The translations under genes were made by a program, and so were the position numbers. Below the pieces are notes generated by a model. That model made no database searches. It saw nothing but the letters and a program-made list of their open reading frames with translations, and had not been told where the DNA came from. A stretch of DNA of 64,000 nucleotides, taken from NCBI GenBank assembly GCA_963732005.1, contig CAVSXT010000005.1:237788-301787 (forward strand). The letters run 5' to 3'. Positions 8,572-63,736 of this stretch are shown here, one piece after another. The stretch is from an uncultured Acidobacteriota bacterium (GTDB lineage Bacteria > Acidobacteriota > Thermoanaerobaculia > Multivoradales > UBA5704). The first letter of the stretch is position 1, and each line of letters begins with the position of its first letter.

Positions 8572-9312
8572 ATGAGTGGATGTAGCGGCTGCGCTTTCAA
8601 GGGGATGTCGACCGCCGTCGAAGACACTTACGTCGGCGTGCGCTTCCGTGAAGAGACCAACGTGACGCTCTGCGCCACCGCCGGCACGATCTACGCTTTC
8701 GGCGAGCAGGTGGTGGTGGACCTCGAGTCGGGGCCCGCCTATGGCCGGGTCGAGCGCTCGCCGATGCCGGTCTTCAAGCCGTGCCAGAAATCGGGCGCGC
8801 GGCCGATCCTGCGCCGGGCGGACGATGCCGATACGGCGGCCCACGAGCGCCAGCGGCAGAGCGAGATGACCGCCAAGCTCTTCGCCCAGGAGCGGGCGCG
8901 CTCGCTCGGCCTGGACATGAAGGTGTCGCTGGTCGAGTTCTCGCTCAGCGGCAAGAAGGCGAATTTCTACTTCACCTCCGACGGGCGGGTGGACTTCCGC
9001 CAGCTGGTCCGCGACCTGTCCAGCCGGTTTTCGGTGCGGGTGAAGATGGTGCAGGTAGGCGCCCGCGACGAGGCCGGCCTGGTCGGCGGCATCGGCATCT
9101 GCGGCCGCACGCTGTGCTGCTCGACCTGGCTCAAGGATTTCCGGCCGATCTCGATCCAGATGGCCAAGCGCCAGAACCTGTCGCTCAATCCGTCGAAGAT
9201 CTCCGGCCAGTGCGGCAGGCTGCTGTGCTGCCTGGCCTACGAGGACGATCAATACAAGACCCGGAACCCGGACGCCCGGCCGCCGTCGCCGCAGGTGTCC
9301 GAGGTCGCCTGA
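8572..9312 (+). CDS. ricT: PSP1-domain Fe-S protein (RicT/YaaT family)
   Basis: 'RVDFRQLVRDL', 'GIGICGRTLCC', 'MAKRQNLSLNPSKISGQCGRLLCCLAYE'. Confidence 0.8.
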   Translation: MSGCSGCAFKGMSTAVEDTYVGVRFREETNVTLCATAGTIYAFGEQVVVDLESGPAYGRVERSPMPVFKPCQKSGARPILRRADDADTAAHERQRQSEMTAKLFAQERARSLGLDMKVSLVEFSLSGKKANFYFTSDGRVDFRQLVRDLSSRFSVRVKMVQVGARDEAGLVGGIGICGRTLCCSTWLKDFRPISIQMAKRQNLSLNPSKISGQCGRLLCCLAYEDDQYKTRNPDARPPSPQVSEVA

Positions 9313-25174: not shown

Positions 25175-26562
<1,388 letters not shown>

Positions 26563-26642: not shown

Positions 26643-27683
26643 GTGGCTTACTTCCAGAAGCGAGTGGGCAGGCGCGGCCAGGTTTCCTGGCTGGTCAGGG
26701 TGCGCATCGGGAGCGAGTGTCGGACGAAGACGTTTCGCCGGAAGGCCGACGCTGAGCGCTGGGGCGGAAAGACGGAGGACGCTCTGCGGGACGGCGTCCG
26801 TCTCCCCGGTCGCGAGGAGAGGCGGCGGACTGTGGGCGACATGATCGCGCGCTACCGCGAGAAGGTCGTCCCGCGCTACCGACCACGAGAGCAGCTTCAA
26901 AGGGGAAGCAAGCTGGCCTGGTGGGAGCGCGAGCTAGGAGGCAGGCGTCTGGTCGAGCTCTCGGCGGCAGATATCGGTGAAGCTCTGGACCGGCTCACCT
27001 GCGGTCCCGCCACGGCGAACCGCTATCTGACGGTGCTCAAGCATGTGCTGTCCATCGCGCGCAGGGAGTGGGAATGGGTGGTGGACAATCCCGCGACCCG
27101 AGTCCGGGCGCGCAAGGAGCCGCGCGGGCGGCTCCGTTACCTTTCGGAGCAAGAGCGTCGCCGGCTCCTGGCTGCCTGCCGCGCCAGCGACGAGCCGCGG
27201 TTGTATGCGCTGGTGGTCGTCGCCCTGGGAACCGGCGCGCGACAGGGGGAGCTGCTCAGCCTTCGCTGGAGCGATGTCGACCTGGATCGCTGCCGGGCGA
27301 CCCTTGAACACACGAAGAACGGTGAGCGCCGCGTGTTGCCTCTCGAGGGTCCCGTGCTGGATATCCTGCGGGAGAGGAAGGCGCGGCGCGAGGACGGTAT
27401 CGACGAGGTCTTTGGCAGCCAGCGTGGGTTGGCTACGTTTCCGCGGAATGCATGGGAGGAGGCGATCAAAGCGGCCGGTGTAGCGGATTTCCACTTCCAC
27501 GATATTCGTCATACGTTCGCCAGCTACATGGCCATGAGCGGCGCCACGCTGGCCGAGCTGGCCGAGGCCCTGGGGCACAAGACGCTGGCGATGGTGAAGC
27601 GCTATGCGCACCTCAGCGAGGCGCACACGTCCGGTGTGGTGAAAAGGATGACGGAGAAGTTCCTGGTTGGCGGTGTCTCCTAG
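26643..27683 (+). CDS. Tyrosine recombinase / phage-type integrase
   Basis: Catalytic set: 'TGARQGEL' (R), 'TKNG' (K), 'FHDIRHTFAS' (HxxR), 'LGHK' (H), 'RYAH' (Y). GTG start at 26643 preferred over the ORF-track start inside the tRNA. Confidence 0.93.
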   Translation: MAYFQKRVGRRGQVSWLVRVRIGSECRTKTFRRKADAERWGGKTEDALRDGVRLPGREERRRTVGDMIARYREKVVPRYRPREQLQRGSKLAWWERELGGRRLVELSAADIGEALDRLTCGPATANRYLTVLKHVLSIARREWEWVVDNPATRVRARKEPRGRLRYLSEQERRRLLAACRASDEPRLYALVVVALGTGARQGELLSLRWSDVDLDRCRATLEHTKNGERRVLPLEGPVLDILRERKARREDGIDEVFGSQRGLATFPRNAWEEAIKAAGVADFHFHDIRHTFASYMAMSGATLAELAEALGHKTLAMVKRYAHLSEAHTSGVVKRMTEKFLVGGVS

Positions 27684-27696
27684 CAGATAAAGCCCC

Positions 27697-28021: not shown

Positions 28022-28357
28022 ATGCCAAGCTGTGATGAGCTTAGACCACCGGAGCCAGGCGCCCCCTGGACCCCCGCCAGAGCGCAAGCGCAACTGGCCG
28101 ACGAGGCGAACGCCCTGCGCGCCATCGCAGACCGCCTCTCGGACGTGCACGCCTGGCTGCCTCCTCCCCCGGACCTGGCCGACCGCCAGGAGCACCGCAA
28201 GCCCTACGACGTGGCAACCGACGTGCTGGCGACCATCGAATGCGTCCTGGAAGACAACCTGCGGCCGGCAATCGAGAGCCTCGAGGCGTCGGCCCAGGTC
28301 ACGGACGAGGCATTACTTCTGGCGTTCGTGGAGGAGTGCCGCAGGTGGCAGCCATGA
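28022..28357 (+). CDS. Hypothetical helical protein
   Basis: RBS GGGAGAG; stop overlaps the next start (ATGA); protein-like composition. Confidence 0.6.
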   Translation: MPSCDELRPPEPGAPWTPARAQAQLADEANALRAIADRLSDVHAWLPPPPDLADRQEHRKPYDVATDVLATIECVLEDNLRPAIESLEASAQVTDEALLLAFVEECRRWQP

Positions 28358-28596
28358 GGTCCGACGAACGGGTCGCCTCCCAGGTCGGCAAGTCCCTCCG
28401 GCGCCTCCGGCTTGAGCGCGATCTCAATCAGAAGCAGGTCGCCGGACGGGCCGGGATCACCAGCTCAATGCTCAGCCGCTACGAGCAGGGACACCATCAC
28501 CCCTCCCTTCCCGTGCTGGTCAAGGTGCTCCGCGCCCTGGACTGCTCGGCCGAGGACTTCGGCAAGCGCTTGGGACCCTGGGGGCGCCTACCGTGA
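28354..28596 (+). CDS. XRE-family helix-turn-helix protein
   Basis: 'LRRLRLERDLNQKQVAGRAGITSSMLSRYEQG...PSL..LVKVLRAL'. Confidence 0.88.
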   Translation: MRSDERVASQVGKSLRRLRLERDLNQKQVAGRAGITSSMLSRYEQGHHHPSLPVLVKVLRALDCSAEDFGKRLGPWGRLP

Positions 28597-28799
28597 GGTC
28601 CACCCAATCGGCGGCGAGCTTGAGCGCGCGAGCGGCATCGCCGTCAACGCAATCTGCGCCTACAAGTCCCGGCGGCGGCGCCCGCCGCCGGCGGCCGTCG
28701 AACGCTTTGCTCATCGCGATGGGCCGCACCTGGGAATCGCTCGACCTGGCGCGGGCGCTCCTGCGTGAGGTCGGCGCTTTCGACGGCGAAGCGCGCTGA
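28593..28799 (+). pseudogene. Frameshifted XRE-type HTH gene
   Basis: HTH 'ELERASGIAVNAICAYKSRRRRPPPAAVER' lies in a different frame from the start and from the tail 'LLIAMGRTWESLDLARALL'; two compensating shifts at about 28614 and 28706. Confidence 0.45.
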
Positions 28800-29017
28800 C
28801 CGATCCCCTTCCGCGTCAGCTCGCGGAAGGCGACCACCGCCATGTAGTCGATCCGCTCGCAGCGGCAGGGGCCGACGCAGAGGCGCTTCCAGTCGCAATC
28901 CCGCCTGAATGATCTGGACTCTTCCGACGAGCTCAACCAGAAACTTCATAGTCTGGCCGACGGGATCGAGTCGCAATCCCACCTGACTGATCTGGTCTCT
29001 TCCGACGCTCCTCTTCC

Positions 29018-30388
29018 GAGGTACCCTCAGAAGGTGTGGAAATGCAGAAGGCGGTGTAGCCTACCTCTGACGTTCCAAAACCCGGGCTGGCAGGCCCGAG
29101 AACGAGGGAGGAACACCGCCGTGGTCGAGAAGATCACCGACAAGCGATCGACGTCAAGCGAGGCATGGGAGTCGCTCGAGAGCTGGGTGAGGGGGAAAGT
29201 GCAGGACTTCGTGCAAGCTCTGCTGGAAGAGGAAGTTACGGAGCTGCTCGGGCGTGCAAAGTCGGCGAGGAGAGCGACGGTGAACGCGGACGCCGGCTAC
29301 CGCAATGGCCACGGCAAGCCGCGGCGACTGACGTTGAGCAGCGGCACGATCACGGTGCGCCGGCCGCGGGTGCGGGATCTCGAGGAGCGGTTCGAGAGCC
29401 GGGTACTGCCGCTGTTCGCCAAGCGGACGCGCGAGGTCGACGGGCTGATCCCGGAGCTCTACCTGCACGGGTTGGCCGAGGGGGACTTTGACCTGGCGCT
29501 ACGCGGCCTGCTCGGGGAGGAAGCGCCGCTGTCGGCCTCGACCGTGGCGCGGCTGAAGGCGAATTGGCAGGTGGAGTACGACGAGTGGCGGCGCCGGCGG
29601 CTCGACGGTCTTGAGCTCACCTACCTGTGGGTGGACGGCCTCTACGTGAAAGCAGGGCTCGAGAAGGACAAGGCCGCGGTGCTCGTCGCCATCGGCGGGC
29701 TGTCGGATGGACGCAAGGTCGTGCTCGCGGTGATGCCCGGTCAGCGCGAGTCCACCGAGAGCTGGTCGGCGATGCTGCGCGATCTGAAGGCTCGCGGCCT
29801 GGTCTGCCCGCGCCTGGCGGTCGCGGACGGTCACCTGGGCATCTGGGGGGCGCTCCGCAACGTCTACCCGGAAGCTTCGGAGCAGCGGTGCTGGAACCAC
29901 CGAATCGTCAACGTGCTCGACAAGGTCCCGCAGCGACTCCATGAAGAGGCCAAGCCGCTGCTGTGCACGATCCCCTACGCGGCAACGCGCGGCGAAGCTG
30001 AGGCGGCCAAGCAGCGGTTCGCGCGCTGGTGCCGCACGCGCGGCCAGCAGGCGGCAGCTGAGCTACTCGACCATGACTGGGATCGCATGGTCACCTTCTA
30101 CCAGTTCCCAGAGCCGCACTGGCGCCACCTGCGGACCACCAACATCGTCGAGTCGCCGTTCTGCGGCCTGCGGCTCCGCACCGACGCCGCCAGGCGGTAC
30201 AAGAAAGTCGAGCACGCGACGGCCGTACTCTGGAAGTTGCTGCTCGTTGCCGAGCGGCGCTTCCGCCGACTCAACTCACCCGTTCTGTTGAAGGAAGTCT
30301 TCGCAGGAGTGCAGTACATCGATGGAGTACGAGCGCGCCGCGAGGAGGCCGCCGCCTGATGCGTTTACACACCTCTTGACGGAACCTC
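29018..30388 (+). mobile_element. IS256-family insertion sequence (1371 bp) inside a CRISPR spacer
   Basis: 28-bp imperfect IRs (GAGGTACCCTCAGAAGGTGTGGAAATGC vs rc GAGGTTCCGTCAAGAGGTGTGTAAACGC, 22/28); 9-bp TSD TCCTCTTCC at 29009-29017 and 30389-30397. Confidence 0.93.
29121..30359 (+). CDS. IS256-family (Mutator-like) DDE transposase
   Basis: 'GYRNGH', 'LWVDG', 'ESTESW', 'AVADGHLG', 'QRCWNH', 'LRTTNIVES'. GTG start after GAGGGAGG. Confidence 0.93.
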   Translation: MVEKITDKRSTSSEAWESLESWVRGKVQDFVQALLEEEVTELLGRAKSARRATVNADAGYRNGHGKPRRLTLSSGTITVRRPRVRDLEERFESRVLPLFAKRTREVDGLIPELYLHGLAEGDFDLALRGLLGEEAPLSASTVARLKANWQVEYDEWRRRRLDGLELTYLWVDGLYVKAGLEKDKAAVLVAIGGLSDGRKVVLAVMPGQRESTESWSAMLRDLKARGLVCPRLAVADGHLGIWGALRNVYPEASEQRCWNHRIVNVLDKVPQRLHEEAKPLLCTIPYAATRGEAEAAKQRFARWCRTRGQQAAAELLDHDWDRMVTFYQFPEPHWRHLRTTNIVESPFCGLRLRTDAARRYKKVEHATAVLWKLLLVAERRFRRLNSPVLLKEVFAGVQYIDGVRARREEAAA

Positions 30389-31541
30389 TCCTCTTCCTGA
30401 AGAGTAGGAACGTCGACATGGAGTCGCAATCCCACCTGACTGATCTGGTCTCTTCCGACAGCTGGTGCAGGACTACCTCAAGACGTGGGCCGACCAGTCG
30501 CAATCCCACCTGACTAATCTGGTCTCTTCCGACCCTGTCCGTGGCGGTCATCCTGTTCATCGCAGGGGTCATGTTCGTCGCAATCCCACCTGACTGATCT
30601 GGTCTCTTCCGACCAAGCTGCCGGACCGCTATGGAGGCGGAGCGCTGGGCAGTTAAGTCGCAATCCCACCTGACTGATCTGGTCTCTTCCGACGCTATGA
30701 ACCTTTCCCTTGAAAAGGCGACTGATTTCAGAAGTCGCAATCCCACCTGACTGATCTGGTCTCTTCCGACGACACCCGCGTCGACGCCCCCACTCTCATC
30801 ACCTTCCCGAACCGTCGCAATCCCACCTGACTGATCTGGTCTCTTCCGACTGTTCTAAAGGGCAACCAACCGCCTCCCCTCGGGCAGTCGCAATCCCACC
30901 TGACTGATCTGGTCTCTTCCGACCCGTATCCCAGACCGGCAGTGTTCTGCCCCTAGTGAGGTCGCAATCCCACCTGACTGATCTGGTCTCTTCCGACTCC
31001 TTCCCTCGACCGCGACCGAGAAGCCCAAGGCCACCACCTATCAAGTCGCAATCCCACCTGACTGATCTGGTCTCTTCCGACAGCGAGGCGATGAAGGAAG
31101 CTCGCGTGCTCGTCGAATCTCTCGGTCGCAATCCCACCTGACTGATCTGGTCTCTTCCGACCGAAACACCCGCTGTATGTTCCCTATCACTACGCGCCGT
31201 CGCAATCCCACCTGACTGATCTGGTCTCTTCCGACAACCTCCTTGCCGACGGCCTCAGCATCGAGGACTTCGGTCGCAATCCCACCTGACTGATCTGGTC
31301 TCTTCCGACCTGACCAGCTATCCCGCGGCCCCCGCGACGCTGGGTGAGTCGCAATCCCACCTGACTGATCTGGTCTCTTCCGACGACCAGACGAACCCCC
31401 ATCTCATCCGGGCGAAGAAGCCCCTCGCCGTCGCAATCCCACCTGACTGATCTGGTCTCTTCCGACGGAGCGTACGGCCATGGAGCGGGTCAAGTTCCAA
31501 AGAAGTCGCAATCCCACCTGACTGATCTGGTCTCTTCCGAC

Positions 31542-31720
31542 TGCCGCCTTTTTAACTTCCTTATTATCAAAGAGTTGGAGGCCCTCCGGCCGTTACCTGC
31601 CGAAGCGGGCTCTTTCAGGAGAGAAAATCGTCCTTGGCTTGGCCGTCGCCGGTCATCGTAAGTGCTGAGGAGATGTGAGTTAGACGCTCGGCCGTTACCT
31701 GGGTGCCAAAATGGCGAATT
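31542..31720 (-). promoter_or_regulatory. Putative CRISPR leader
   Basis: Non-coding and AT-rich next to the last repeat (TTTTTAACTTCCTTATTATCAAAGAGTT); contains a 13-bp direct repeat CGGCCGTTACCTG at 31587 and 31689. The distal boundary is approximate. Confidence 0.65.
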
Positions 31721-32040
31721 TGGCTTGGCATCATCTATGCTCCGGCGCCGCTCAAGCCGAGATAGAGATCCGGATGGGCACGATGCCCAGGATGTCTTCG
31801 GGGCTCACACCCAATAGATTCGCACCCTGTCGTGGGCCTCGTCAATCACGCATGAAATTCGTGTTCCGATTGCGGCGGCGCATTGGCGCGCGGCGGTGGT
31901 TTCAAGGCTCGCATTGCGCGGCGCGTTCGTGCCGGAGGAGCTGGCCATGATCGTGGACTGCAAGGGCCTGCGCCGGAGCCTCTTGGACCCAGCCTCCGGG
32001 CCTCTGGTCTCGAATGCTGCGCGGTGGCTTCGGCCAGGCG

Positions 32041-32499
32041 CTACGGCGACTGGTCTGCTTCATGGGCCGCGAGCAGGTCGGCCGAGGCCGTGGCGGCATG
32101 CGGGCTGCGGATCGCCTTGGGGAAGAGCACCGTGAGAGTCCTGAGCGGCAGGTGCCGGTCCCAGCACTGCCTGGGCTTGGCGTCGGTGCGCGTGGTGATG
32201 GCGACCGCGGCGACGTCGAGATAGCCGAGGTGCTCCCGGTCGGAGTCGCGATCGTCGATCGGGCTGGCGCGGAAGGAGCCGGAGAGCTCGAGCCAGTTGC
32301 CGTACACCCTGGTGATGCGATCGTCCGCGTCGTAGGGGTAGCCGTGGCGGTCGGCGTCGACCAGATCGACCCTGAGGCTCACCTGCTCGCCGGCGAAGTG
32401 ACCGATGACCAGCAGGGAAAGGTTGTGGCGGCCTGAAAAGTACGATTCGTCCGGGCGGATCCAGCCGGTGAGCAGGACGTCGCGGGCTTGCTGGTTCAT
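32041..32499 (-). CDS. Hypothetical protein (152 aa)
   Basis: ATG at 32499; protein-like beta-rich composition; same orientation as neighbours. Confidence 0.5.
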   Translation of the reverse strand: MNQQARDVLLTGWIRPDESYFSGRHNLSLLVIGHFAGEQVSLRVDLVDADRHGYPYDADDRITRVYGNWLELSGSFRASPIDDRDSDREHLGYLDVAAVAITTRTDAKPRQCWDRHLPLRTLTVLFPKAIRSPHAATASADLLAAHEADQSP

Positions 32500-32594: not shown

Positions 32595-33401
32595 TCACGA
32601 CATCCGCGCGGCGGCGTCGCGGTCCTCCGGGCCGGCGGTGTAGCGGCCGGCGCGGTCCAGGTTGTCGAGGGTCAGGACGATGCGCCCGGCCTCGGCGGTG
32701 ACCCGAGCGCGCTGCCCGGGGGTGAAACCGAGCCGCGCCAGCCAGCGGCCGGAGAAGCGGATGGACGGTAGGCCGGCGTCGGCGAGGGCGCGGGTGACGG
32801 CAAGGCTGCGGGGCGCCGGCCGCCGCGGCGAATCGAGCAGCCCGGCGCCCTGCGCGATGGCCTCGGCGACGAGGTCCATGGCTCCGTCCACGGCGGGGAT
32901 GTGAAAGCAGAGGCGGGCGGGGCGCGGGGCGGCAAGGCAGACGGCGCCCGCGGGGGAATCGGCGACCAGGCGCGGCGGTGGCGCCGCGGGCAGACGCCAC
33001 TCGACGGCGAGCAGCGAGCCGTCCACGGCCTGGGAGAGGCGGGCGAGCACGGGGACGCAGGGGGGGACGGATTGGCGCCAGAAGGCGAGCATGGCCGGGC
33101 CGAGGGGCCGCCCATTGGGATCGGAGGGGGCGAGACGGATGGCCAGCCTGACCCAACCGTCGGCGGTGAGCTCGAGATCCTGCGGCACCTCGAAGGAGCA
33201 CTGGACCGCGAAGCGCTTCCAGGGTTCCGGGTCGCCGCCGGTGGCGAGGGTCACATGCAGCTGCTGGCTGAGAATGGTTACCAAGGTGGCGCGGTAACCC
33301 GAGCGCTCGGCGGCATTGCGTGGAGTAGGTTGGGTCCGCACCACGGTGTCGGTGCAGCCGGCGATCTGGAGCAGGTAGGTATCGGTGTGCGGGAAGGTCA
33401 T
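32595..33401 (-). CDS. Protein with a C-terminal SymE-like (AbrB-fold) toxin domain
   Basis: C-terminal 'PSIRFSGRWLARLGFTPGQRARVTAEAGRIVLT' matches the SymE pattern P.I.L.G.WL...GF..G....V....G.L.I. Confidence 0.6.
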   Translation of the reverse strand: MTFPHTDTYLLQIAGCTDTVVRTQPTPRNAAERSGYRATLVTILSQQLHVTLATGGDPEPWKRFAVQCSFEVPQDLELTADGWVRLAIRLAPSDPNGRPLGPAMLAFWRQSVPPCVPVLARLSQAVDGSLLAVEWRLPAAPPPRLVADSPAGAVCLAAPRPARLCFHIPAVDGAMDLVAEAIAQGAGLLDSPRRPAPRSLAVTRALADAGLPSIRFSGRWLARLGFTPGQRARVTAEAGRIVLTLDNLDRAGRYTAGPEDRDAAARMS

Positions 33402-39960: not shown

Positions 39961-41442
39961 CTATCCGGGCTGGAACGGCGGCGCCGGCTCGTGCCGGCTC
40001 TGCTCCAGGTAGTCCAGCAGCCGCCGGGCCAGCTCCGCCGTGACGGTCTGCGCCGCGGCTGCCTCGCAAAACAGGCGGAGCGCCGCCAGGGCCTCCCGGT
40101 GCACCCGTTGGCCGCGGAAGATCCAGAGCATCTCCTCGGCCAGGCCTACAACCTCCGCGCGCCGGCCCGCTTCGAGGTGCAGGATCGCCAGCTCCAGGGA
40201 TACCAGGGCCGTGTCGTAGCCGTTCTCGAGCGCGGCAAACTCGCGCCGGACCTGCTCGAACGCCGTCAGCGCCTCTTCCCGCTGTCCGCGGCCCGCCGCC
40301 ACCCGGCCCCGCAGCCAGCGCATCCGCACGGTGTCGAGCTTGTGGTCCAGCTCCTGCGTGAGCTGCTCGAGCGCGGGTAGCCTCGCCGCCGCCTCCTCGT
40401 ACTCGCCGAGGTGGCATAGGTTCACGACGAGGTTGAAGCTCAGCACGCACTGCTCGCGAGCATCGGTGGCGTCGCCTACGCGCGAGGCGGCCTCGCGCAG
40501 CGCTCGCAGTGCCTGCACTGGCTCTCCCGCCTGCTCCAGCACCACCGCCCGGTTCAGCAGCAGCCGCCCGCGCGACTGTGGAGGCGCCATGGCCAGCGCC
40601 CGGTCGAGTAGCTCGAGCGCGATGTTGAACTGCCGCTGCTCGCGGCGCAACGATGCTTCCAGGTCGAGAAGTCGCCATTCGCCAGGCTGCGGCTCGCCGG
40701 CAGGCCCGCCCGCCCGCCGGAGGGCCCGGACCGTGGCGAAGCTCGCGTCGGCCGCCGGCAGGTCGCCCGCCACCCGCTGCGCGCTGGCGACGAACGCCCA
40801 TGCGTAGCCTTCCAGGCTCCAGCATTGCGCCTGCTCACCGGGCGCCGTCTTCGCCACCCGCACTGCCAGCAGCGCGAGGCGGAGCGCTTGGCCCGCGTCG
40901 TCCGCCGCGGCCCGCGCGCTCGCTGCGCACAGCCGCTCGACGAGGTTCTGAAATTCCTGCCACCAATCGGGAAGCAGCAGCCTCTCGCGGGAGGCGAGGT
41001 CCGGCGGGCCGGAGAGGTCGCGCACCTCCACCGCCTGCGTGCCAAGAGCGCCGGCGGCATCGTCGCGCCCGTCGTCGGCTTCGGCTGGCGACGCCAGGAG
41101 CTCCGCCACGGCCGCGCGAGCCGCGGCGCCGAGGTCGCGCTCGAGCATCTCCCCCACGGCCATGGCCACCTCCTCGCCGGCCGGCGCGGCGCTGCCCTCC
41201 GACCACCGTCGCGCGAGCCGGATCGCGGGCAGCACCACCTCGTCGATTGCCCAGGGCGGCACCCCCGCCACCTTCGCCAGCCTCTCGATGCTGGCGCGCG
41301 ACGGGGTCTCTTTTCCTTCCTCGAAGCGGCAGATCGTGCTCCTGTGCAGGCCCGCCGCGGTGGCCAGCTCGCGCTGCGTCCAGTCCCGCAGCAACCGCAG
41401 GAACCCGACCAGCACTCTCGAGTCGGCGGCATCAGCTGGCAT
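39961..41442 (-). CDS. XRE-HTH + TPR-like regulator
   Basis: N-terminal 'FLRLLRDWTQRELATAAGLHRSTICRFEEG'; TPR-like body; C-terminal 'YDTALVSLELA...VHREALAALRLFC'. Confidence 0.82.
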   Translation of the reverse strand: MPADAADSRVLVGFLRLLRDWTQRELATAAGLHRSTICRFEEGKETPSRASIERLAKVAGVPPWAIDEVVLPAIRLARRWSEGSAAPAGEEVAMAVGEMLERDLGAAARAAVAELLASPAEADDGRDDAAGALGTQAVEVRDLSGPPDLASRERLLLPDWWQEFQNLVERLCAASARAAADDAGQALRLALLAVRVAKTAPGEQAQCWSLEGYAWAFVASAQRVAGDLPAADASFATVRALRRAGGPAGEPQPGEWRLLDLEASLRREQRQFNIALELLDRALAMAPPQSRGRLLLNRAVVLEQAGEPVQALRALREAASRVGDATDAREQCVLSFNLVVNLCHLGEYEEAAARLPALEQLTQELDHKLDTVRMRWLRGRVAAGRGQREEALTAFEQVRREFAALENGYDTALVSLELAILHLEAGRRAEVVGLAEEMLWIFRGQRVHREALAALRLFCEAAAAQTVTAELARRLLDYLEQSRHEPAPPFQPG

Positions 41443-42931
41443 CGGTCGCCTGGGCCTCGAATCGCAGTCCGGGATCGCGGCGCGCCCGCTCCAGGTAGTC
41501 GAACAGGCGCCGGGCCAACGCTGCTGTCGCGGTGTCGTTGGCCGCCGCCCTGCAATACAGCCGCAGCGCCGCCAGCGCCTCGCGGTGCACCTGCTGCGAG
41601 CTGAAGATCCACAGCATGGCCTCGGCCAGTGCCCGCACCTCTCCGAGATGGCCCTCCTCCAGCTCGAGCATCGAGAGCTCAAGCGATACCAGCGCCGTGT
41701 CGTAGGGATTGCCTGCCTGCGCGAACTGCCGCCGCACCTCCTCGAAGGCGACTCTCGCGGCCTCGCGCTTGCCCAGCCCGGCCGCCACCCGCGCGGACAG
41801 CCAACCGTGTCGTAGGAGGTCCAGCTCGTTGCCCAATTCAACGATCTTGTTACGCAGTTCCGGGAGCTGTGCCTCGGCTTCCTGGTGCCGCCCAAGGTGG
41901 CAGAGGATGACGATGCCATTGAATCGGACCACCAGCCGATCTCGCGGCTCGCGCGCCGCCTCGATCAGCGGTGCGGCCTCACGCAGCACGGCGAGCGCCG
42001 CGTCGATCTCCCCTTGGTACTCAAGCGTCACCGCCCTGTTGAGCAGGATGCGGCCCCTTGCCGCCGCCGGCGCCGCCGCCAGCGCCCGGCCCAGCAAATC
42101 GAGCGCCTGTTCGAACTCGCCCAACTCACGCCGCAGCGATGCTTCGAGGTCCAGCAGGCGCCATTCCGCCAGCGGGCTGTCTGCGGCGGCCGCGCCGGCC
42201 CGCCAGCACTCCGAGGCGGCGGCGAAGCTCTTGCCCGCCGCCTGCAGGTGCCCGCGCACGCGCTGTGCGTTGCCGACGAAGGCCCAGACCCACCCGAGCA
42301 GCCGCGACCGCCACGCCGGTTCGCCCGGGGCCAGCTCCGCCGCCCGCAGCGCCAGCCGCGCCAGCTCCTCGGCCCGCTGACCGTCGGCCGCCGCGGCGCG
42401 CACGCTCTCGTCGCACAGCCGCTCGGCGAGCGCCCAGGTCTGGTGCTCCGGCGAGGTCTCCACCCGATCGCGCCGCGCCGTCGGCGCCATTTGGCGCAGC
42501 TCCTCCCACAACCGCGCCGCCTCCCGCCGCGCCGCCGCCAGCCGCCGGACGCGCGCCGCCTCGAGCAGCCGCGAGCGCGTGAGGCTCGCCGCCAGCAGCC
42601 CGATCCGCGCTGCGGCCCGCGCCACTCGCTGCCGCTCGCCGCGCGAGGGCTCGATCGGCGACCGCCCGGCCGCGGCCGGCGCCGGCGCTCCCGGTGACAG
42701 GCCCCGCAGGAAGAGCAGCACCAAGTCCACCTCCCCGGCCTCGTAGCCCATCGCCGCCGCCAGGACGTCGAGCGTCTCGCGCGACAGGATCTTTACCGTC
42801 CCACCCTCGTAGCTACCCACCAGCTTGCGCCGGACGCCCGCTGCGGCCGCCAGCTCCGTCTGGCTGTAGCCGCGGGCGGTCCTCAGGTGGATGAGCGCCA
42901 GGCTCAGCGGCGGCGGCGCGGGTCGTGGCAT
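41432..42931 (-). CDS. XRE-HTH + TPR-like regulator (tandem paralog)
   Basis: 'LIHLRTARGYSQTELAAAAGVRRKLVGSYEGG'; shares 'EWRLLDLEASLRR', 'RGR.LLNRAV.LE', 'YDTALVSLEL', 'VHREALAALRL' with 39961..41442; 11-nt overlap. Confidence 0.82.
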   Translation of the reverse strand: MPRPAPPPLSLALIHLRTARGYSQTELAAAAGVRRKLVGSYEGGTVKILSRETLDVLAAAMGYEAGEVDLVLLFLRGLSPGAPAPAAAGRSPIEPSRGERQRVARAAARIGLLAASLTRSRLLEAARVRRLAAARREAARLWEELRQMAPTARRDRVETSPEHQTWALAERLCDESVRAAAADGQRAEELARLALRAAELAPGEPAWRSRLLGWVWAFVGNAQRVRGHLQAAGKSFAAASECWRAGAAAADSPLAEWRLLDLEASLRRELGEFEQALDLLGRALAAAPAAARGRILLNRAVTLEYQGEIDAALAVLREAAPLIEAAREPRDRLVVRFNGIVILCHLGRHQEAEAQLPELRNKIVELGNELDLLRHGWLSARVAAGLGKREAARVAFEEVRRQFAQAGNPYDTALVSLELSMLELEEGHLGEVRALAEAMLWIFSSQQVHREALAALRLYCRAAANDTATAALARRLFDYLERARRDPGLRFEAQATDAS

Positions 42932-43355
42932 AGGGCGGCCTCCATTGTCGCATGTCCTAAATACACCGGTGATCGCCACCCGTGCCGGCGAGACATCGCG
43001 GCGGAACCTCGCCCTTCACCTGCCCGCTTTCGAGACAAAGGTTCCCCGAAAAGCAACTCCGGGTGATTCTCGCGTATCTTGAAGTTCTTGCAAAGAGGAA
43101 TTTGTGGATTCTCTCGCGCGCTCTCGGCCGCGCCTTCGGCGCGCGGACCGGGAGCCGCTTATCCCCATGAACCTCGGACCCGCGCGAATCCCGTCTCGCG
43201 CAGGTCCTCAGCCGTTGCAACGCGTCCTCGCTTCTGGTGTGTCCGGGCACCCTCTGAGATTCAGCCTGAGCACCTCCCCTCCTTAGTCGGCGAGAAGGCG
43301 CCTGGGTAGGCGGCCGGCAAGCTGCGAGAGCATGATTCCGTGGGCAGGAGCCGTC

Positions 43356-44618
43356 TTACTCCGATCTCTTTGCTCTCGGCGGCCTTTGATAATGAGTTGC
43401 TGTAACAAAGTCGATGAAAGCCACGGCAGACCCAACCGCGAGGCGGGCATGACGCGGTTCCAGGCCCCGGTGGTGGCCGTCGCGGCCGTGCCCCGAGCCA
43501 TAGAGCCCGCGGAGTTCAGCAAGGTACTGAGTCAAAGCTGCGAGGTTACGGAGAATAAGTCGTATTGTCTCTGCGCCTTTGGCTTCGTCGGAGATGCCCT
43601 CCGGAACTAAATTGAGTTCCTTCGCCAGCAGCTTGGTGAGTTTCGGTAAATCTGCCTTGGGCGACACTGCAATACCCCTCTTCTTGAGAATGGTCTTGCA
43701 GCAAGTTTCGACCAGGTCCTTAGCGGTTCCAATCGCGAGTGTCGGATCTCGCTCTACTGCTGCCTCGAGACGTTCAATCTCCTTCTGCATCCATCCTGCG
43801 TCGAGGGCGTCGGCGACCGTCTTTGCCCGCGAGAGCGATCTTCCGCCGCTCCCAGGTTGACTCCTCCTGGGTACGAATCGAGGATGGCCGGCAACGGTCT
43901 CCTCCTCGATCAGATTCCAGCCTGATGGACGAAGAATCTCATTGAATTTCTGCGCGAGCTTAAGAGCCTCGTTCCGGTCGGGTCGCACGGCGGGATGGAT
44001 CACTTCGCAAATAAATCGAAGGAAATTTGCGGACGATCCTTTCATTAGATCGAACCGGCCATCGCCAAAAATCCAGTCGTCAGGCCAATCATTCGGGTTG
44101 TTAACGCGATGTTGCCAAATATCATCAGCTGCGTTCTGAAAGCGGTAATCGTTAGAAGGTAGCTGTTCAAGGTCAAAGAGACGCTCAAGGAATTCGACGT
44201 CTCCCAGTTGACCATACCAAGGCACGTTGCCGATCCTCAGAGTGTCAGCTATGCTCTGGCGTGTTGCGCGGGACACCTCTTCGTCGGAAAGACGCCAATC
44301 GGCGCGTGTCTCTACGGTCGGTGCGATAAGTGCAGTGTACGAATCGCTCGAAAATTGCGCCAAGGCCGATGCGAGGCGTTTAGTGATCTGGTTTTCCAGT
44401 CCCTCGCGCTTGCCTCCCAACCGAGCATAAGCCGTTGGCTCTAATTGCAGATAGATGGTCCACGAGGTTGTGCCACCGTTCCAATTGTCGTAACCCGTTT
44501 CTTCAACGCGGGCCTTCGCGATTCGCAAGACTTTAGCCGCATCGGCCATTCCTTCCGTCGAGAGCATCGCCTCAGCGGTCGCAAGGTAGCGTTCTAGATC
44601 GTCAGGGCCTAGGTTCAT
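43356..44618 (-). CDS. Abortive infection family protein (AbiJ N-terminal-like + Abi_C domain)
   Basis: 'FLERLFDLEQLPS.DYRF..A..DIWQH.VNN..DW..DWIF.D.RF.L'; C-terminal 'AIGTAKDLVETCCKTIL', 'LRGLYGSGHGR', 'ARLAVGSA'; visibly lower GC. Confidence 0.8.
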   Translation of the reverse strand: MNLGPDDLERYLATAEAMLSTEGMADAAKVLRIAKARVEETGYDNWNGGTTSWTIYLQLEPTAYARLGGKREGLENQITKRLASALAQFSSDSYTALIAPTVETRADWRLSDEEVSRATRQSIADTLRIGNVPWYGQLGDVEFLERLFDLEQLPSNDYRFQNAADDIWQHRVNNPNDWPDDWIFGDGRFDLMKGSSANFLRFICEVIHPAVRPDRNEALKLAQKFNEILRPSGWNLIEEETVAGHPRFVPRRSQPGSGGRSLSRAKTVADALDAGWMQKEIERLEAAVERDPTLAIGTAKDLVETCCKTILKKRGIAVSPKADLPKLTKLLAKELNLVPEGISDEAKGAETIRLILRNLAALTQYLAELRGLYGSGHGRDGHHRGLEPRHARLAVGSAVAFIDFVTATHYQRPPRAKRSE

Positions 44619-58619: not shown

Positions 58620-61600
58620 GTGAAGACCGTTAGGATTGCAATCTGCCAGCTCGAATCGCATCCGGCGCTGTATTTCGGCGCAGCTGCCCTCCTCGAGGAA
58701 CCCTTCGTTCCGGCACACAACAAACCATCGCTCGCGAAACTCGGTGCCAGAGGAATCGATGTAATATCGCTTCAGCAAGGCTGCCTAGAACACTATCTTG
58801 GGTGGAATCAAGTTCGCATCGCCAGCGTGTTGACATTCCTAGAGACCGTCGCGCCCCTTCCTGACCTTGTCCTACTTCCAGAAGGCTCAATTCCGATCGA
58901 GCTTCTACCAAGCGTTGGCGAGTGGTCGTCGAAAACTGGAGCAACCGTCCTGGCTGGTACGCATACTCCTCGGAGAACGCCACACGCCCAAGAATGCTAC
59001 AGGGCGATTGGCTTAGACGCAAAAGGCATGAGGCAGTTATTCAAGTATCAGTCATCAAATGTCCTACCATTAATTAGAACGGGGCACGCAGTCATTATCC
59101 CCAAGCGCCATGCTTCTCCGTTCGAGACTTCCACCAGCTCCACGGTTTTGCCGGCCACACCCTCACTGAGGCCATTTTCTTCTGGTGCACCTCAGCATAT
59201 TTTCGAACTATTGCCAATGATATGCTCGGAAGCACTACAGCTTTCCACGGTCGCTAAGCCCTATGACGTAGTGGGCCTTTTGGCCTATGATTCAAGGCCC
59301 ACCCAGTTCGGCGCATTCATTTCAACCCAAGTGCGAAACAAGAAGGCAGTGGCGTTCTGCAACGATGGCGCCTTTGGTGGAAGCTCAATCGCGACAGCTC
59401 TCGACAACAGGATGTCGAGTTGGCTTCACGAGACTTTGCCCAACGGCCTTCCGGCAGGCGATGCTATCCTCGTGGCAGACATCGATCTCGACGTGACCGC
59501 GGTAGAGGTGGGTACGGCGGTGCCGGGGGTATCAATGCGGCTTGTGTTGCTTGCCTCTATCGTTGGTGAGCACCATCCCGCAAGTGAAGCAGCTCGGCAA
59601 ATGGCTGAGGTGCGGGAACTCGGCCAGTCAACAGCGCGCGCTGCACAGCTAGAGGAGCTGTTGCGCAGGCCTTTGGAAACGTTGCAACGTGTCCGTCTCG
59701 ATCAACTTCTGACTGTGGAGGCACGTGGACTTCCGTCGGAAGAGTTGTGGCGGGAACTAGGCCGAGATTGTATCCTTCCTGGGCTCTCTTCGCTTCGCGA
59801 ACTCGAAGCCCAACTGAGCTCTAGATGTTCACGCTACCTTACTCCGCTCCTCGGATCCTCCTTGACGCAAAAGGAGGAGGTGGCGATTCCTTTTATGCAA
59901 TATCTCGCCGAGTGCAATCGCCGGATGGGAGCACAGGCGCCCGATGATACCAAGGCAAAGGCTGAAGACTATGCCATCGCAATAGTCGACCGTGAGCGCG
60001 AAACCTCTTCCGTTCATCTCTTTCTAGACGAACCGACTCAGCTAGTTCTGGAAGTTACCGGTCTTAACGGGATTGGGAAAACCTCGACTCTTAAGAAAGC
60101 CCTTACGCAATCTGGAATATCAGCCACACTCAGGATCATTCTTACTGATACCTCCTCAGTGGATTATATCCTCTACTCTGTGCTTCAGTATGGTGGAGGC
60201 CAGCCACGACCACCCTACAGCGATCCTGCCCAAGTCGCCAGTGGTCCAGCCTTGCGGGCCGCGTTGAGATCAATTCGTGTCTTGATACTTGAAGGCGCAC
60301 ACTATCTCTTGGATCGAGATGCCTGGCGAGATGCGCGTTTCCCGTCTGTAATCGCAGCGCTGTTGGATTCTGCTGATGCGACGCGAACGAAAATCATTAT
60401 AGAGTCGCGCCATGAGCTGCCCCTGGCGCTAGGGCATCCTGCTTCAAGGGCAAAGCTGCATGTTAGGGGCCTCAGCAAGGAGGCGAATAGATTTGGGGTT
60501 GCACTCTTCGATGCGCAGTTACGCCGTGTCAACCTTCTCCCAAGCGTTGTCGGCGATCGCGAGAAGAGCACTATCGTCGACAAACTTGGTGGTCATCCTG
60601 TTGCCATCGCGCTGGCGGCTGACGTGTCATACGAGGAAGGTGTCGATGCTTTGCTCGCTTCCCTAAGGGATCGTCGCGGTTTCTTTTTGCATTTTCTCGA
60701 AGAACTGGTTCGGGGATTGAAGCTCACGGATGATCAGGCGACTGTCATGCGACTTCTTTGCGTAGCGCGGTCAGGCGTTCCGCGTGCCGTCATACTGGAA
60801 TCAGTACCGTTTGCAGCTGGCCCCAGCCTTCGAGAGCTCATTGCCATGGGTGCTGTAGAGGTCGGCCCAAACGGTTGGGTTGAGGTTGCCTCCGTACTGC
60901 GCGACTACTTTGACTCCTCTGAAGTTCCGCCCGACGTGCTGAAATCATTTCATGCGGCTGCAGCGCAGGCTCTCGCTCGCATGGTGCAAGAAAGCGATGG
61001 CGGTGCTGTGGGCCTAGCTGTCGAGGCAGAGTATCACGCGGCTCTAGGGGGGATTGAGTCTCCGGTATCGACAGGCCTGGTAGATGGTGCTGTTGCAACG
61101 GCGCAGGAGTTTTACGCGCAGCAACGATACGACGAGGCGGCGGCGATCCTCGCGCCACTTGCGAGAGCGAAGCAGTCGCTGGATATCCTTCGGCTTGCCG
61201 CGCAGGTGGAGGCGAGGCGTAATAACTTCGATGCGGCTCTTTCCTTTGCACGAGAGGTCTTTAAGCGGAATCCGAGGGACACTTCACTCCTGGCGGAGCT
61301 TTCGAAGATCACGCTCACTCAGTTCCAAGATGAAATTACAGAGCAACTTGTCAGCATTGCTCGGTCTTCTGCTGTTGAGGATGTGAGCATTATGATTGTG
61401 GAGGGTCGTCTGCATCTTCGGAGAGGGAACTTCCCTGCTGCCGAGACGGTGCTGAGGAAGGCTGCGCAGCTGACAGAGAAGAATCCTTGGCCATTTTTCT
61501 ATCTTGGTAGGACGCTAATACGCAGTGGCAAGTTGGATGAGGCGATAGATGTACTTCATGCCGGCGAGGAGTTCTATTTTAAGGTCGAGGCAAGAGGGAG

Positions 61601-62126
61601 AGCGGCTCTTGACGCCATTAGGACACAGTTGGGCATTGCCTACCTGCTGGACGATAAGCTAGAGCTAGCGGCGACGATCCTTGAGTCGGTGCTTCAGCAG
61701 GACAAACCCAATCCAGAAGGTATTCGGGCATTGGCTGCGCTTGCGATTAAGCGCGATGGCGTTAAGGAAGCTCATCAGGTGCTTGAGCGACTGCAGGAAG
61801 CTGGGATTAAGAGTCGAGCCGATGAAGCTCAGTTCCGGCTGCTGTACGGTCTTTTTTATTTGGGTATAGACGACCTTAACAAAGCCAGCGCTGAATTTGG
61901 CAAGGCACACAACGCAGATAGGACGAACGTATTTGTGATGATGAAGTGGGCGAGGACTCTGTTTGATCTCGCAGTCAGTCGCTTCTCGGAATCCGATGAA
62001 ACTTACAAGGTTTATGTGACTGACTGCGCCAGGCTGGTTAGAAAGATTCTGGAATTTGATCCAGATAATCACGAAGGAGTCCGCCTCATGGAGAGTCTCA
62101 GGAACCGTTTTGGAGTGGATATCTGA
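58620..62126 (+). CDS. Nitrilase-fold (CN hydrolase) + STAND-like NTPase + TPR fusion protein
   Basis: N-terminal 'VRIAICQ', 'LLPEGS', 'IPKRHASPFE', 'MICSEAL' (E-K-C triad); Walker A 'GLNGIGKT' near 60060; 'LGGHPVAIALAA' (GxP); C-terminal TPRs; low GC. Confidence 0.72.
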   Translation: MKTVRIAICQLESHPALYFGAAALLEEPFVPAHNKPSLAKLGARGIDVISLQQGCLEHYLGWNQVRIASVLTFLETVAPLPDLVLLPEGSIPIELLPSVGEWSSKTGATVLAGTHTPRRTPHAQECYRAIGLDAKGMRQLFKYQSSNVLPLIRTGHAVIIPKRHASPFETSTSSTVLPATPSLRPFSSGAPQHIFELLPMICSEALQLSTVAKPYDVVGLLAYDSRPTQFGAFISTQVRNKKAVAFCNDGAFGGSSIATALDNRMSSWLHETLPNGLPAGDAILVADIDLDVTAVEVGTAVPGVSMRLVLLASIVGEHHPASEAARQMAEVRELGQSTARAAQLEELLRRPLETLQRVRLDQLLTVEARGLPSEELWRELGRDCILPGLSSLRELEAQLSSRCSRYLTPLLGSSLTQKEEVAIPFMQYLAECNRRMGAQAPDDTKAKAEDYAIAIVDRERETSSVHLFLDEPTQLVLEVTGLNGIGKTSTLKKALTQSGISATLRIILTDTSSVDYILYSVLQYGGGQPRPPYSDPAQVASGPALRAALRSIRVLILEGAHYLLDRDAWRDARFPSVIAALLDSADATRTKIIIESRHELPLALGHPASRAKLHVRGLSKEANRFGVALFDAQLRRVNLLPSVVGDREKSTIVDKLGGHPVAIALAADVSYEEGVDALLASLRDRRGFFLHFLEELVRGLKLTDDQATVMRLLCVARSGVPRAVILESVPFAAGPSLRELIAMGAVEVGPNGWVEVASVLRDYFDSSEVPPDVLKSFHAAAAQALARMVQESDGGAVGLAVEAEYHAALGGIESPVSTGLVDGAVATAQEFYAQQRYDEAAAILAPLARAKQSLDILRLAAQVEARRNNFDAALSFAREVFKRNPRDTSLLAELSKITLTQFQDEITEQLVSIARSSAVEDVSIMIVEGRLHLRRGNFPAAETVLRKAAQLTEKNPWPFFYLGRTLIRSGKLDEAIDVLHAGEEFYFKVEARGRAALDAIRTQLGIAYLLDDKLELAATILESVLQQDKPNPEGIRALAALAIKRDGVKEAHQVLERLQEAGIKSRADEAQFRLLYGLFYLGIDDLNKASAEFGKAHNADRTNVFVMMKWARTLFDLAVSRFSESDETYKVYVTDCARLVRKILEFDPDNHEGVRLMESLRNRFGVDI

Positions 62127-62248
62127 TATCTAGCCCTAATGGCGCGTTGGGACCTGGGTTCACGGCCGCTTCGCCGTCACAGAGAACGACCCGACGAGCC
62201 TGGTCGGACGTCTGGCTGTCGTGGGCGAGTGGAAGCCCACAGGGGACC

Positions 62249-63736
62249 TTACAGGCGATTTGTGCCTCTTTTCATACCGAGATGGGCTCTAAACATTGGG
62301 TGAATATCAAATCGCCTGCTATTGGAGACACTGAGACTGAAGGCTTGATGAGGTCCCAGGTAACCACTCTTTGCTGCATGGCCTCGTCCGAGACTTCCAA
62401 AGGGCTCGGCCCGCAAAAAGCCAACTCGCCAGAGAAGGTCGATCAGCCTCCCGGGATCAATGGCAAGACACCATGACTCAGCACCTGGAGCGCTTAGCTC
62501 TCGTTCACAAATTCGAAGACAGTGGTATTCCAAAGCATCTCTTGAGAACGAAATCGGCATGCCGCGAAAGGTCTCAAAGATATCGTCAAGGCCAGGAAAC
62601 TCAAACCTATATTCAGCAGCTGTATCCTTTAGGCGGGCCTCAGAATGAAGAGGCTCAACGGAGCTTATGAGGTCGTAATTAAAAGGAGGCAGTAAAGACC
62701 TCTTCAATGCGAGATCGCGAACTAGTTCGCAAAACTGTATTAGCTCGCGAGGGCGATAGAGAGTGCGGTCCACAAGATATTTAAACGACTTGCCCTGCCG
62801 ATCCGTTAGAGTCTCAGAGAAGACCCTGTTCCAGAGGTGTTCCGCCTGTAGAAAGTTTAACTCCGGGACAGAAACGCGCAATCTCTTCGCTATCATCTCC
62901 AAGAGGCTTTGTTCATCCCATACGAGGAACTCAATGGTGTCGCGATATTTTTGAGCGTCGTCGAATAGAGCTGGGATGCTTCGGTAAAGCTCGAGGCGAA
63001 GCGATAGAATTACCCGAACGCCGTTTTGTTCATTGTTTATTAGCATGGAAGCATTGAAAAGACCTGCTACAAAGGCCCGCGCATCCTCCGAGTTGTCCCA
63101 GCCGCGATCCAACTCGTCAACAAGAACGATTACAGGCTTGGTCCGCGCCAGTATAGCTAGGTGACTAACCGGAGTTGTAAGCTCCTCAAGTCGATATAAC
63201 CGGGCGAGCTCCCGTGCCTTGACACCAGCCTCGAACTTTCCTAGTTTGATGCCCTCAAGCCGTTTAATAAATGATATCAGCATGCCAATTGGATTCACGT
63301 CCATGTTGGCGTGATTGTCTCGTAAGTAGTTATACAGCTTGCCTGCTGCGCCGTGTTTCAGGCGAGAGCCAGTTTTGGTAACTGCCTTCATGGCAGACAG
63401 ATATATGATGTATCTCCAGGCGGCCGCGTATGCAGCCTGCTTTGCCCATGCTCCATCCTCTTCCCTCCGCAGGGTGGTTTCAAGGATGCCATACGAGTAG
63501 TCATCAGGTGCGAGTTCCAGTACTGTCGCGCTGCCGCGGAGTCTTGCAGCCAGCGCCTTTAGAATCGCAGTCTTGCCCGCCCCTCGATTTCCAAGGACAA
63601 TTGTCTTGTCGCCATACCTGAGGCGGCGAAAGGATTCAGATTCGAAGAAGTATCTATCGAGGTGCTCCTCTCTTTCGGCAGCAGGTGCGCCAAACGAAAG
63701 ATCGGCTGGATCGATTCGGGTAGTGTGGGTATTCAT
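62249..63736 (-). CDS. P-loop ATPase (Sll1717/FunZ-like)
   Basis: 'FGAPAAERE...L..YF', 'GNRGAGKT', 'VLVDELDRGW', 'RPRELIQF'; low GC. Confidence 0.75.
   Translation of the reverse strand: MNTHTTRIDPADLSFGAPAAEREEHLDRYFFESESFRRLRYGDKTIVLGNRGAGKTAILKALAARLRGSATVLELAPDDYSYGILETTLRREEDGAWAKQAAYAAAWRYIIYLSAMKAVTKTGSRLKHGAAGKLYNYLRDNHANMDVNPIGMLISFIKRLEGIKLGKFEAGVKARELARLYRLEELTTPVSHLAILARTKPVIVLVDELDRGWDNSEDARAFVAGLFNASMLINNEQNGVRVILSLRLELYRSIPALFDDAQKYRDTIEFLVWDEQSLLEMIAKRLRVSVPELNFLQAEHLWNRVFSETLTDRQGKSFKYLVDRTLYRPRELIQFCELVRDLALKRSLLPPFNYDLISSVEPLHSEARLKDTAAEYRFEFPGLDDIFETFRGMPISFSRDALEYHCLRICERELSAPGAESWCLAIDPGRLIDLLWRVGFLRAEPFGSLGRGHAAKSGYLGPHQAFSLSVSNSRRFDIHPMFRAHLGMKRGTNRL

Follow-up and report, generated by a model that had tools for sequence, protein, structure and literature searches.

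We analysed a 64-kb stretch of contig CAVSXT010000005.1 from the metagenome-assembled genome (MAG) of an uncultured Acidobacteriota bacterium, a member of the Thermoanaerobaculia from soil (the window, meaning the whole of that stretch), which carries a CRISPR array at positions 28892–31541. The array is probably what remains of a type III-B CRISPR-Cas locus that was formerly complete. Since fragments of cas2, of a gene for a CARF-like protein and of cas6 adjoin its leader, it would not have been built to live without cas genes. Judged from sequence, it is best classed as a 'distant' array in the terms of Bernheim et al. (2020; PMC7145637), neither an orphan nor a device of a mobile element; distant arrays lie more than 20 kb from any cas cluster in a genome that has cas genes. 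Loci fetched for comparison are cited by their L numbers. The array and its leader were read out as follows.

28892–29006, minus strand: trailer end of the array, with the degenerate terminal repeat (three mismatches), spacer 1 and repeat 2 (repeat and spacer read-out).
29018–30388 (1371 bp), plus strand: IS256-family element inside spacer 2 (Pfam Transposase_mut, E 5.5e-55; ends read from the sequence).
30423–31541, minus strand: main part of the array, with 15 repeats (14 identical, one with one mismatch at 30497) and 14 complete spacers of 36–47 nt (repeat and spacer read-out).
31542–31735, minus strand: leader (boxes conserved in related leaders; match to the cas-adjacent array of a relative).

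Seventeen copies of a 37-nucleotide (nt) repeat, GTCGCAATCCCACCTGACTGATCTGGTCTCTTCCGAC on the plus strand, were found at 28892–31541 with up to three mismatches allowed, and none were found in shuffled sequences. Of these, 15 are identical; one mismatch is present at 30497 and three in the terminal copy at 28892. No two of the 16 spacers are alike; they are 36–47 nt long, and one of them is split by an insertion sequence (IS). Direct repeats of 23–50 nt thus alternate with unique spacers of similar size, with a leader at one end and a degenerate repeat at the other, and the feature is a genuine CRISPR array. The position of the degenerate repeat at the left and of the less G+C-rich leader at the right indicates that the array is read on the minus strand, on which the repeat in CRISPR RNA (crRNA) sense is GTCGGAAGAGACCAGATCAGTCAGGTGGGATTGCGAC. 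An earlier prediction made from the sequence alone (the original prediction) had reported 17 repeats with 15 identical, spacers of 36–47 nt and a leader; the recount with up to three mismatches agrees, the re-measured spacers fall in the same range and a leader is present. The homogeneity of the repeats had also been taken as a sign of recent activity. It is weak evidence of this, since point changes build up slowly in a total of 555 nt of repeat. Folded by itself, the repeat gave no significant structure (z −1.0), and a stem-loop repeat was rejected.

The closest relative, which has a complete locus, is a Thermoanaerobaculia MAG; the seryl-tRNA synthetase (SerRS) of the window is 95% identical to that of this MAG, with further matches from soil Thermoanaerobaculia or Acidobacteriota. 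Loci L014 and L126 (DATGHG010000306.1) come from this same MAG, and their repeat differs from that of the window by one mismatch in 37. In L126–L128 the order is array, leader, cas2, an RVT_1 fragment, a 249-residue CARF-like membrane protein, a 93-residue open reading frame (ORF) and cas6, followed by cmr2/cas10, cmr3, a RAMP gene, a 264-residue ORF, a RAMP gene (cmr4), cmr5, a RAMP gene (cmr6) and a second mini-array. The Cas10 of this locus is named 'type III-B Cas10/Cmr2' by NCBI.

No intact cas gene was found in the 64-kb window using Pfam, NCBIfam and PADLOC on plausible ORFs and tblastn with the 12 Cas proteins of the relative; neither cas10/cmr2 nor cmr3–6 is present there, and the window therefore holds no complete type III-B locus. 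The leader-side flank was compared with all fetched loci. The original prediction that the 64 kb contain no cas gene stands for intact genes, but three short cas pseudogene fragments adjoin the leader.

31806–31873, minus strand: cas2 pseudogene fragment, codons ~45–66 of 77 (blastn and tblastn to L126).
31947–32027, plus strand: N-terminal fragment, 27 codons, of the gene for the CARF-like membrane protein (tblastn, 67% over 27 residues, E 1.5e-6).
31996–32077, plus strand: cas6 pseudogene fragment, codons 53–79 of 342 (blastn and tblastn to L126).

The cas2 fragment matches L126 both in nucleotide sequence (31806–31849 against 8789–8832, 86% over 44 nt, blastn) and in protein sequence (31808–31873, minus strand, 64% over 22 residues, E 2e-4, tblastn). 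The same is true of the cas6 fragment (32006–32077 against L126 11155–11225, 83% over 72 nt, E 7e-14, blastn; 31996–32076, 67% over 27 residues, E 1.5e-6, tblastn), which also matches the cas6 genes of L096, L097 and L109. The CARF-like fragment, in a frame other than that of the cas6 fragment, has a protein match only, no nucleotide match to L126 being reported; in the relative, its gene lies between cas2/RT (reverse transcriptase) and cas6. The two loci agree in the order and orientation of leader, cas2, CARF-like gene and cas6, and the three fragments, collinear with the leader, span 270 nt in the window against 2.4 kb in the relative. The loci differ in that the cas genes are intact in L126, whereas the window retains fragments of 66–82 nt and cmr2–6 are gone, no remains of them being found in the window after the cas6 fragment. 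Collinear fragments of this size point to removal of the cas operon in place by at least three deletions. The L126 locus has three repeats against 17 in the window, and its neighbours are genes for a superoxide dismutase, an extracytoplasmic function (ECF) sigma factor and a kinase, in contrast to the tRNA-Ser and integrase of the window. This difference in chromosomal context implies that the whole module moved at some time.

The history that we propose would begin with the ancestral order array, leader, cas2, RT, CARF-like gene, cas6 and cmr2–6. At least three deletions in place would have taken out the cas genes and left fragments beside an intact two-box leader; later, an IS256-family element would have entered an old spacer near the trailer, the 15 leader-proximal repeats staying contiguous with the leader.

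The adaptation module of the relative is itself decayed (L014 5557–6586, L126 8755–9350): its RT is shortened and lies in two frames, cas2 is kept and no cas1 is visible. The three repeats of the cas-adjacent array in L126 each differ slightly. In the window, a 268-residue ORF directly beyond the cas fragments (32595–33401, minus strand) has a C-terminal SymE_toxin-like domain of the AbrB/SpoVT type (E 7.8e-9).

The leader ties the array to this family of loci as well. Over 96 nt, the last repeat with the proximal leader (31504–31599) is 86% identical to the cas-adjacent array of the relative; the leader alone (31542–31599) is 79% identical. An alignment of the 110 nt upstream of the first repeat in about 40 family arrays gave a family box, GGTAAC(G/A)GC(G/C)G(A/G)A(G/A)G, ~40–58 nt upstream of the first repeat, and a second feature, an A/T-rich TATAAT-like or GATAAT-like box, ~20–35 nt upstream. 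The leader of the window has a −10-like A/T-rich box at 31560–31574, a proximal conserved box, GGTAACGGCCGGAGG, at 31580–31599 and a distal conserved box at 31690–31731. Its boxes are common to the leaders of about 30 related arrays, and the distal box matches those of L117 and L051 at an equal distance from the first repeat. The shared boxes could be binding sites for an integration host factor or for a regulator. A simple sigma-70 scan of the leader called no promoter. Leaders of L009, L026, L074, L096, L117, L051 and others, like that of the window, carry the box GGTAACGGC(C/G)G(G/A)AGG ~40–58 nt upstream, and at least some family leaders have a second box 150–190 nt upstream with the same GGTAACGGCCG core.

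The exact repeat, searched with three Ns, was absent from the contigs of species-representative genomes and from IMG/VR. Among soil metagenomes it occurred in a single contig (L001), the trailer end of a different array, with no cas genes. A looser search required the repeat 3′ end GGATTGCGAC twice, spaced as in a CRISPR array, together with GTCG at the repeat start, and gave 119 loci. About 50 of these have 37-nt repeats that are 1–10 changes away from the repeat of the window, and almost all of these come from MAGs of Thermoanaerobaculia, Holophagales and other Acidobacteriota. All repeats of the family share 5′ GTCGGA and 3′ GG(T/A)GGGATTGCGAC (in short, 5′ GTCGGA and 3′ GGTGGGATTGCGAC), and several genomes hold three to five separate arrays of this family.

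Genes of type III-B systems stand beside arrays with such repeats. In L096, where the repeat is four changes off, Cmr4, Cmr5 and Cmr6 are encoded directly upstream of the array (NCBIfam) and a PF10040 Cas6 downstream; in L034 and L123, cmr2–6 lie in array blocks of the same family. Genes for cas6, cmr, cas2, RT or the CARF-like protein were present in 24 of the approximately 50 family blocks of 8 kb and absent from 26, in a survey whose queries were III-B proteins only and which would miss other cas types near family members. With cmr/cas10 and cas6 found beside arrays of this kind, the array of the window is assigned by its repeat to a type III-B repeat family of soil Acidobacteriota. The original prediction of a type III-like array is borne out here, as repeats 1–4 bases off adjoin cas6 and cmr2–cmr6 in related MAGs.

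The 8-nt crRNA tag of Thermus thermophilus is AUUGCGAC. The array repeat has ATTGCGAC at its 3′ end, and a Cas6 cut 8 nt before this end, giving a 5′-AUUGCGAC tag, is predicted for the array. A literature search for AUUGCGAC returned unrelated papers only. The resemblance to T. thermophilus type III repeat ends that had been pointed out from the sequence was confirmed: the III-A/III-B repeat of strains HB27 and HB8 is GTTGCAAGGGATTGARCCCCGTAAGGGGATTGCGAC, ending in GGGGATTGCGAC (PMC10989782). The likeness covers the 3′ end GGGATTGCGAC and goes no further than the final 11 bases; outside them the repeats differ, as do Cas6 family and host phylum, and no membership is implied. Many dispersed arrays with one repeat, and cas genes elsewhere, are found in T. 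thermophilus and likewise in the family of the window (PMC10989782).

Counting from the trailer, the IS256-family element interrupts the array after repeat 2 and before repeat 3. Its inverted repeats, GAGGTACCCTCAGAAGGTGTGGAAATGCA and GAGGTTCCGTCAAGAGGTGTGTAAACGCA, are imperfect and about 29 bp long, and a 9-bp target duplication, TCCTCTTCC, lies at 29009–29017 and 30389–30397. The ends of the element are confirmed by a soil metagenome contig whose match covers exactly 29018–30388 and whose sequence beyond it is unrelated. When the IS and one of the two duplicates are taken out, an uninterrupted spacer of 36 nt results. As in other IS-interrupted arrays, a known kind, the IS with its target duplication sits inside a spacer, and the insertion here is nothing unusual. 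It lies at the old end of the array, and the leader-proximal part is intact. An exact-protein look-up of the transposase gave no record. An IS256-like transposase 61% identical to that of the window also lies between two pieces of a same-family array in another Acidobacteriota MAG (L119 2473–3696; CAVWRJ010000025.1), and IS256 insertion into arrays of this repeat family may be recurrent.

A search with the Cas6 of the relative returned P0141, an intact protein of 339 residues with PF27225 and PF10040 that is 63% identical to the query. P0141 and the SerRS of the window (P0001) are both recorded on an NCBI/ENA contig of 2,979,791 bp, and P0141 appears to be encoded on the window's own 2.98-Mb contig. 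It has no match in the window, which places it at least ~29 kb from the array. The array had originally been called an orphan; this description finds no support at the level of the genome, given that an intact same-family Cas6 is on record for the 2,979,791-bp contig. As in the distant arrays of the literature, no intact cas gene lies within ~29 kb on either side and the repeat type fits the Cas6 family of the genome. A described route to such arrays is that, of two similar cas clusters, one is lost while a compatible array is kept (PMC7145637); the present case differs in that the loss is seen directly in the window as gene fragments.

The cas6 fragment agrees with the Cas6 of the relative at 17 of 22 residues and with P0141 at 12 of 22, so that P0141 would come from a second, more divergent locus. 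Cas6 proteins this divergent coexist with one repeat on CAWAUI010000004.1, where a Cas6 paralogue 64% identical to its neighbour adjoins an array with an identical repeat. On this contig (L096/L097, at 2.984 and 3.008 Mb) a cmr6–array–cas6 segment is duplicated 24 kb apart, and the 64% identical Cas6 is a third paralogue. Cross-processing of the array of the window by P0141 is plausible on these comparisons. The array would be transcribed from the leader on the minus strand, P0141 would cut each repeat 8 nt before its 3′ end to give crRNAs with the 5′-AUUGCGAC tag, and these would be loaded into a type III effector encoded elsewhere.

We consider the chances even that the array is still used or processed in trans in this manner. 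Several observations weigh against it. The placement of P0141 rests on the matching 2,979,791-bp record and not on coordinates, and exact-protein look-ups of SerRS P0001 and Cas6 P0141 gave no record. With the cognate type of Cas6, P0141 shares only 63% identity and, as the residue counts above show, it is further from the cas6 fragment than the Cas6 of the relative is. Of 1967 matches to a Cmr2 query, the best 120 include no Cas10/Cmr2 from the 2,979,791-bp contig, and no cas1 or cas2 is known for the genome of the window. The comparison of the spacers with plasmids and IMG/VR that had been proposed with the original prediction was run, as was one with phages, and matched no targets: neither the window nor the fetched loci gave a match, the concatenated spacers had no phage match and a best plasmid match at chance level (26 nt, E 0.7), and three spacer cores had no match in IMG/VR. 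The deletions of the adjacent cas genes and the IS insertion both fit decay.

A rival explanation is a dead relic, an array no longer processed or used that persists for lack of time for recombination between its repeats. The reduction of the cas2, CARF-like and cas6 genes to fragments, the IS256 element inside the array, the distance of the remaining Cas6 from the cognate type, the lack of a same-contig Cmr2 among those best matches and the lack of a spacer target all favour it, as does the parallel decay of adaptation in the closest relative, with its RT split over two frames and no cas1. Against it, the leader retains both family-conserved boxes and 15 of the 17 repeats are identical, the genome has an intact same-family Cas6 on record, and the invariant repeat ends (5′ GTCGGA, 3′ GG[TA]GGGATTGCGAC) are common to arrays with Cas6 proteins 52–69% identical. 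We regard the relic as a serious possibility, somewhat short of an even chance.

The surroundings of the array bear on a different explanation, that it is cargo of an integrative element. The features to its left are the following.

25175–26488: serS.
26475–26562, plus strand: tRNA-Ser(UGA), a recurrent integration site in the clade (ARAGORN and Rfam).
26644–27686, plus strand: tyrosine integrase, apparently intact, start codon inferred (Pfam Phage_integrase, E 1.4e-31; R, HxxR and Y motifs in the translation).
28240–28596, plus strand: Cro/C1-type helix–turn–helix (HTH) protein, between integrase and array (Pfam HTH_3, E 3.6e-15).

The integrase ORF ends at 27686 and the first repeat starts at 28892, the distance of about 1.2 kb originally given. 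In a cas-less array at tRNA-Ser that is element cargo, host Cas6, effector and Cas1–2 would be borrowed for the defence of the element or for competition between elements. The intact tyrosine integrase and the Cro/C1-type HTH gene directly between tRNA-Ser and the array speak for such an element, and AbiJ-like and NTPase genes follow the array. The tRNA-Ser is also a proven integration site: relatives carry inserts of 4.5 kb (L005, 11300–15944) and 9.2 kb (L129, 11308–20541) there, bounded by a right attachment site (attR) that is a 63–76-nt copy of the 3′ part of the tRNA. Every relative examined differs in what lies downstream of serS and to the right of tRNA-Ser, so that the array belongs to a hypervariable island at this tRNA hot spot; the right boundary of the island cannot be set, no genes there being common to the window and L005, L129 or L130.

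The inserts in L005 and L129, bounded by attL and attR, contain no array, however, and searches of the other 37 kb of the window with 13-mers, a 28-mer with up to three mismatches and blastn-short gave no attR, which could lie beyond the 64 kb or have been lost. The integrase is also old. In a sister species (L002/L003 tails) homology passes through tRNA-Ser and 375 nt beyond, and the integrase is a pseudogene with two 1-nt deletions and a stop codon, followed by an IS630-type transposase (DDE_3 IS). The tRNA–integrase stretch is 91% identical in nucleotide sequence to that of the sister species, against 88–92% in long core alignments; identity at core level suggests that the integrase predates the species split, and the decayed copy kept at the same site in the sister species speaks against recent mobility. 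The cas fragments indicate that a full cas operon accompanied the array, on arrival or at its site, and that selection did not act on a stand-alone set of guides; no spacer matched a mobile element in the searches above. Of the original view that an integrative element carries the array, the intact integrase beside tRNA-Ser survives; the absence of attR from 37 kb, the age of the integrase and the array-free elements of 4.5–9 kb in relatives tell against the rest, and we consider element cargo very unlikely.

A related idea would combine the two settings: having lost its own cas operon, the array would be kept since a second, divergent type III system on the same chromosome processes, uses and perhaps extends it, and its guide library would be mobile as island cargo. 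A hint of such mobility comes from a soil metagenome with an identical leader and oldest spacer and none of the other spacers; we judge this combination unlikely. If it were true, a guide library could pass between strains via the intact integrase at the tRNA hot spot. The metagenome in question, soil run X1 (2024), contains 28721–28970 (trailer flank and spacer 1) and 31527–31773 (leader) with zero differences, and the IS also occurs in it, in another context. No spacer from 3 to 16 was seen there, at a depth of 2–7 at which contigs show presence and not absence. The pattern could reflect spacer turnover between near-identical strains or low coverage and is a lead, not evidence.

Returning to the array as a distant array that arose by loss of cas genes, the phenomenon is already in the literature (PMC7145637) and no new mechanism is involved. 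What the window adds is a clean example at the sequence level, in which the cas operon was apparently deleted in place, its fragments are identifiable and leader and repeats are intact. A repeat, leader and Cas6 family linked to type III-B is documented as well; it is widespread among the Thermoanaerobaculia and other Acidobacteriota of soil that are uncultured, in which multiple dispersed arrays per genome are common. The window further provides a candidate for cross-processing between Cas6 paralogues that are ~63% identical. For annotation, the lesson is to check for cas pseudogene fragments before an array is called orphan or element-borne.

To the right of the array, ORFs without a family match, two HTH-TPR genes, an AbiJ-like gene, large surface proteins and STAND/AAA NTPases are encoded. 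At 39961–42979, 43356–44618 and 58620–63736 lie two tandem HTH-TPR paralogues, the AbiJ-like gene (AbiJ_NTD3 and Abi_C) and two STAND/AAA NTPase genes. The two NTPase genes fall in a low-GC segment (52–59%) at the right end of the window, and the context resembles a defence island.

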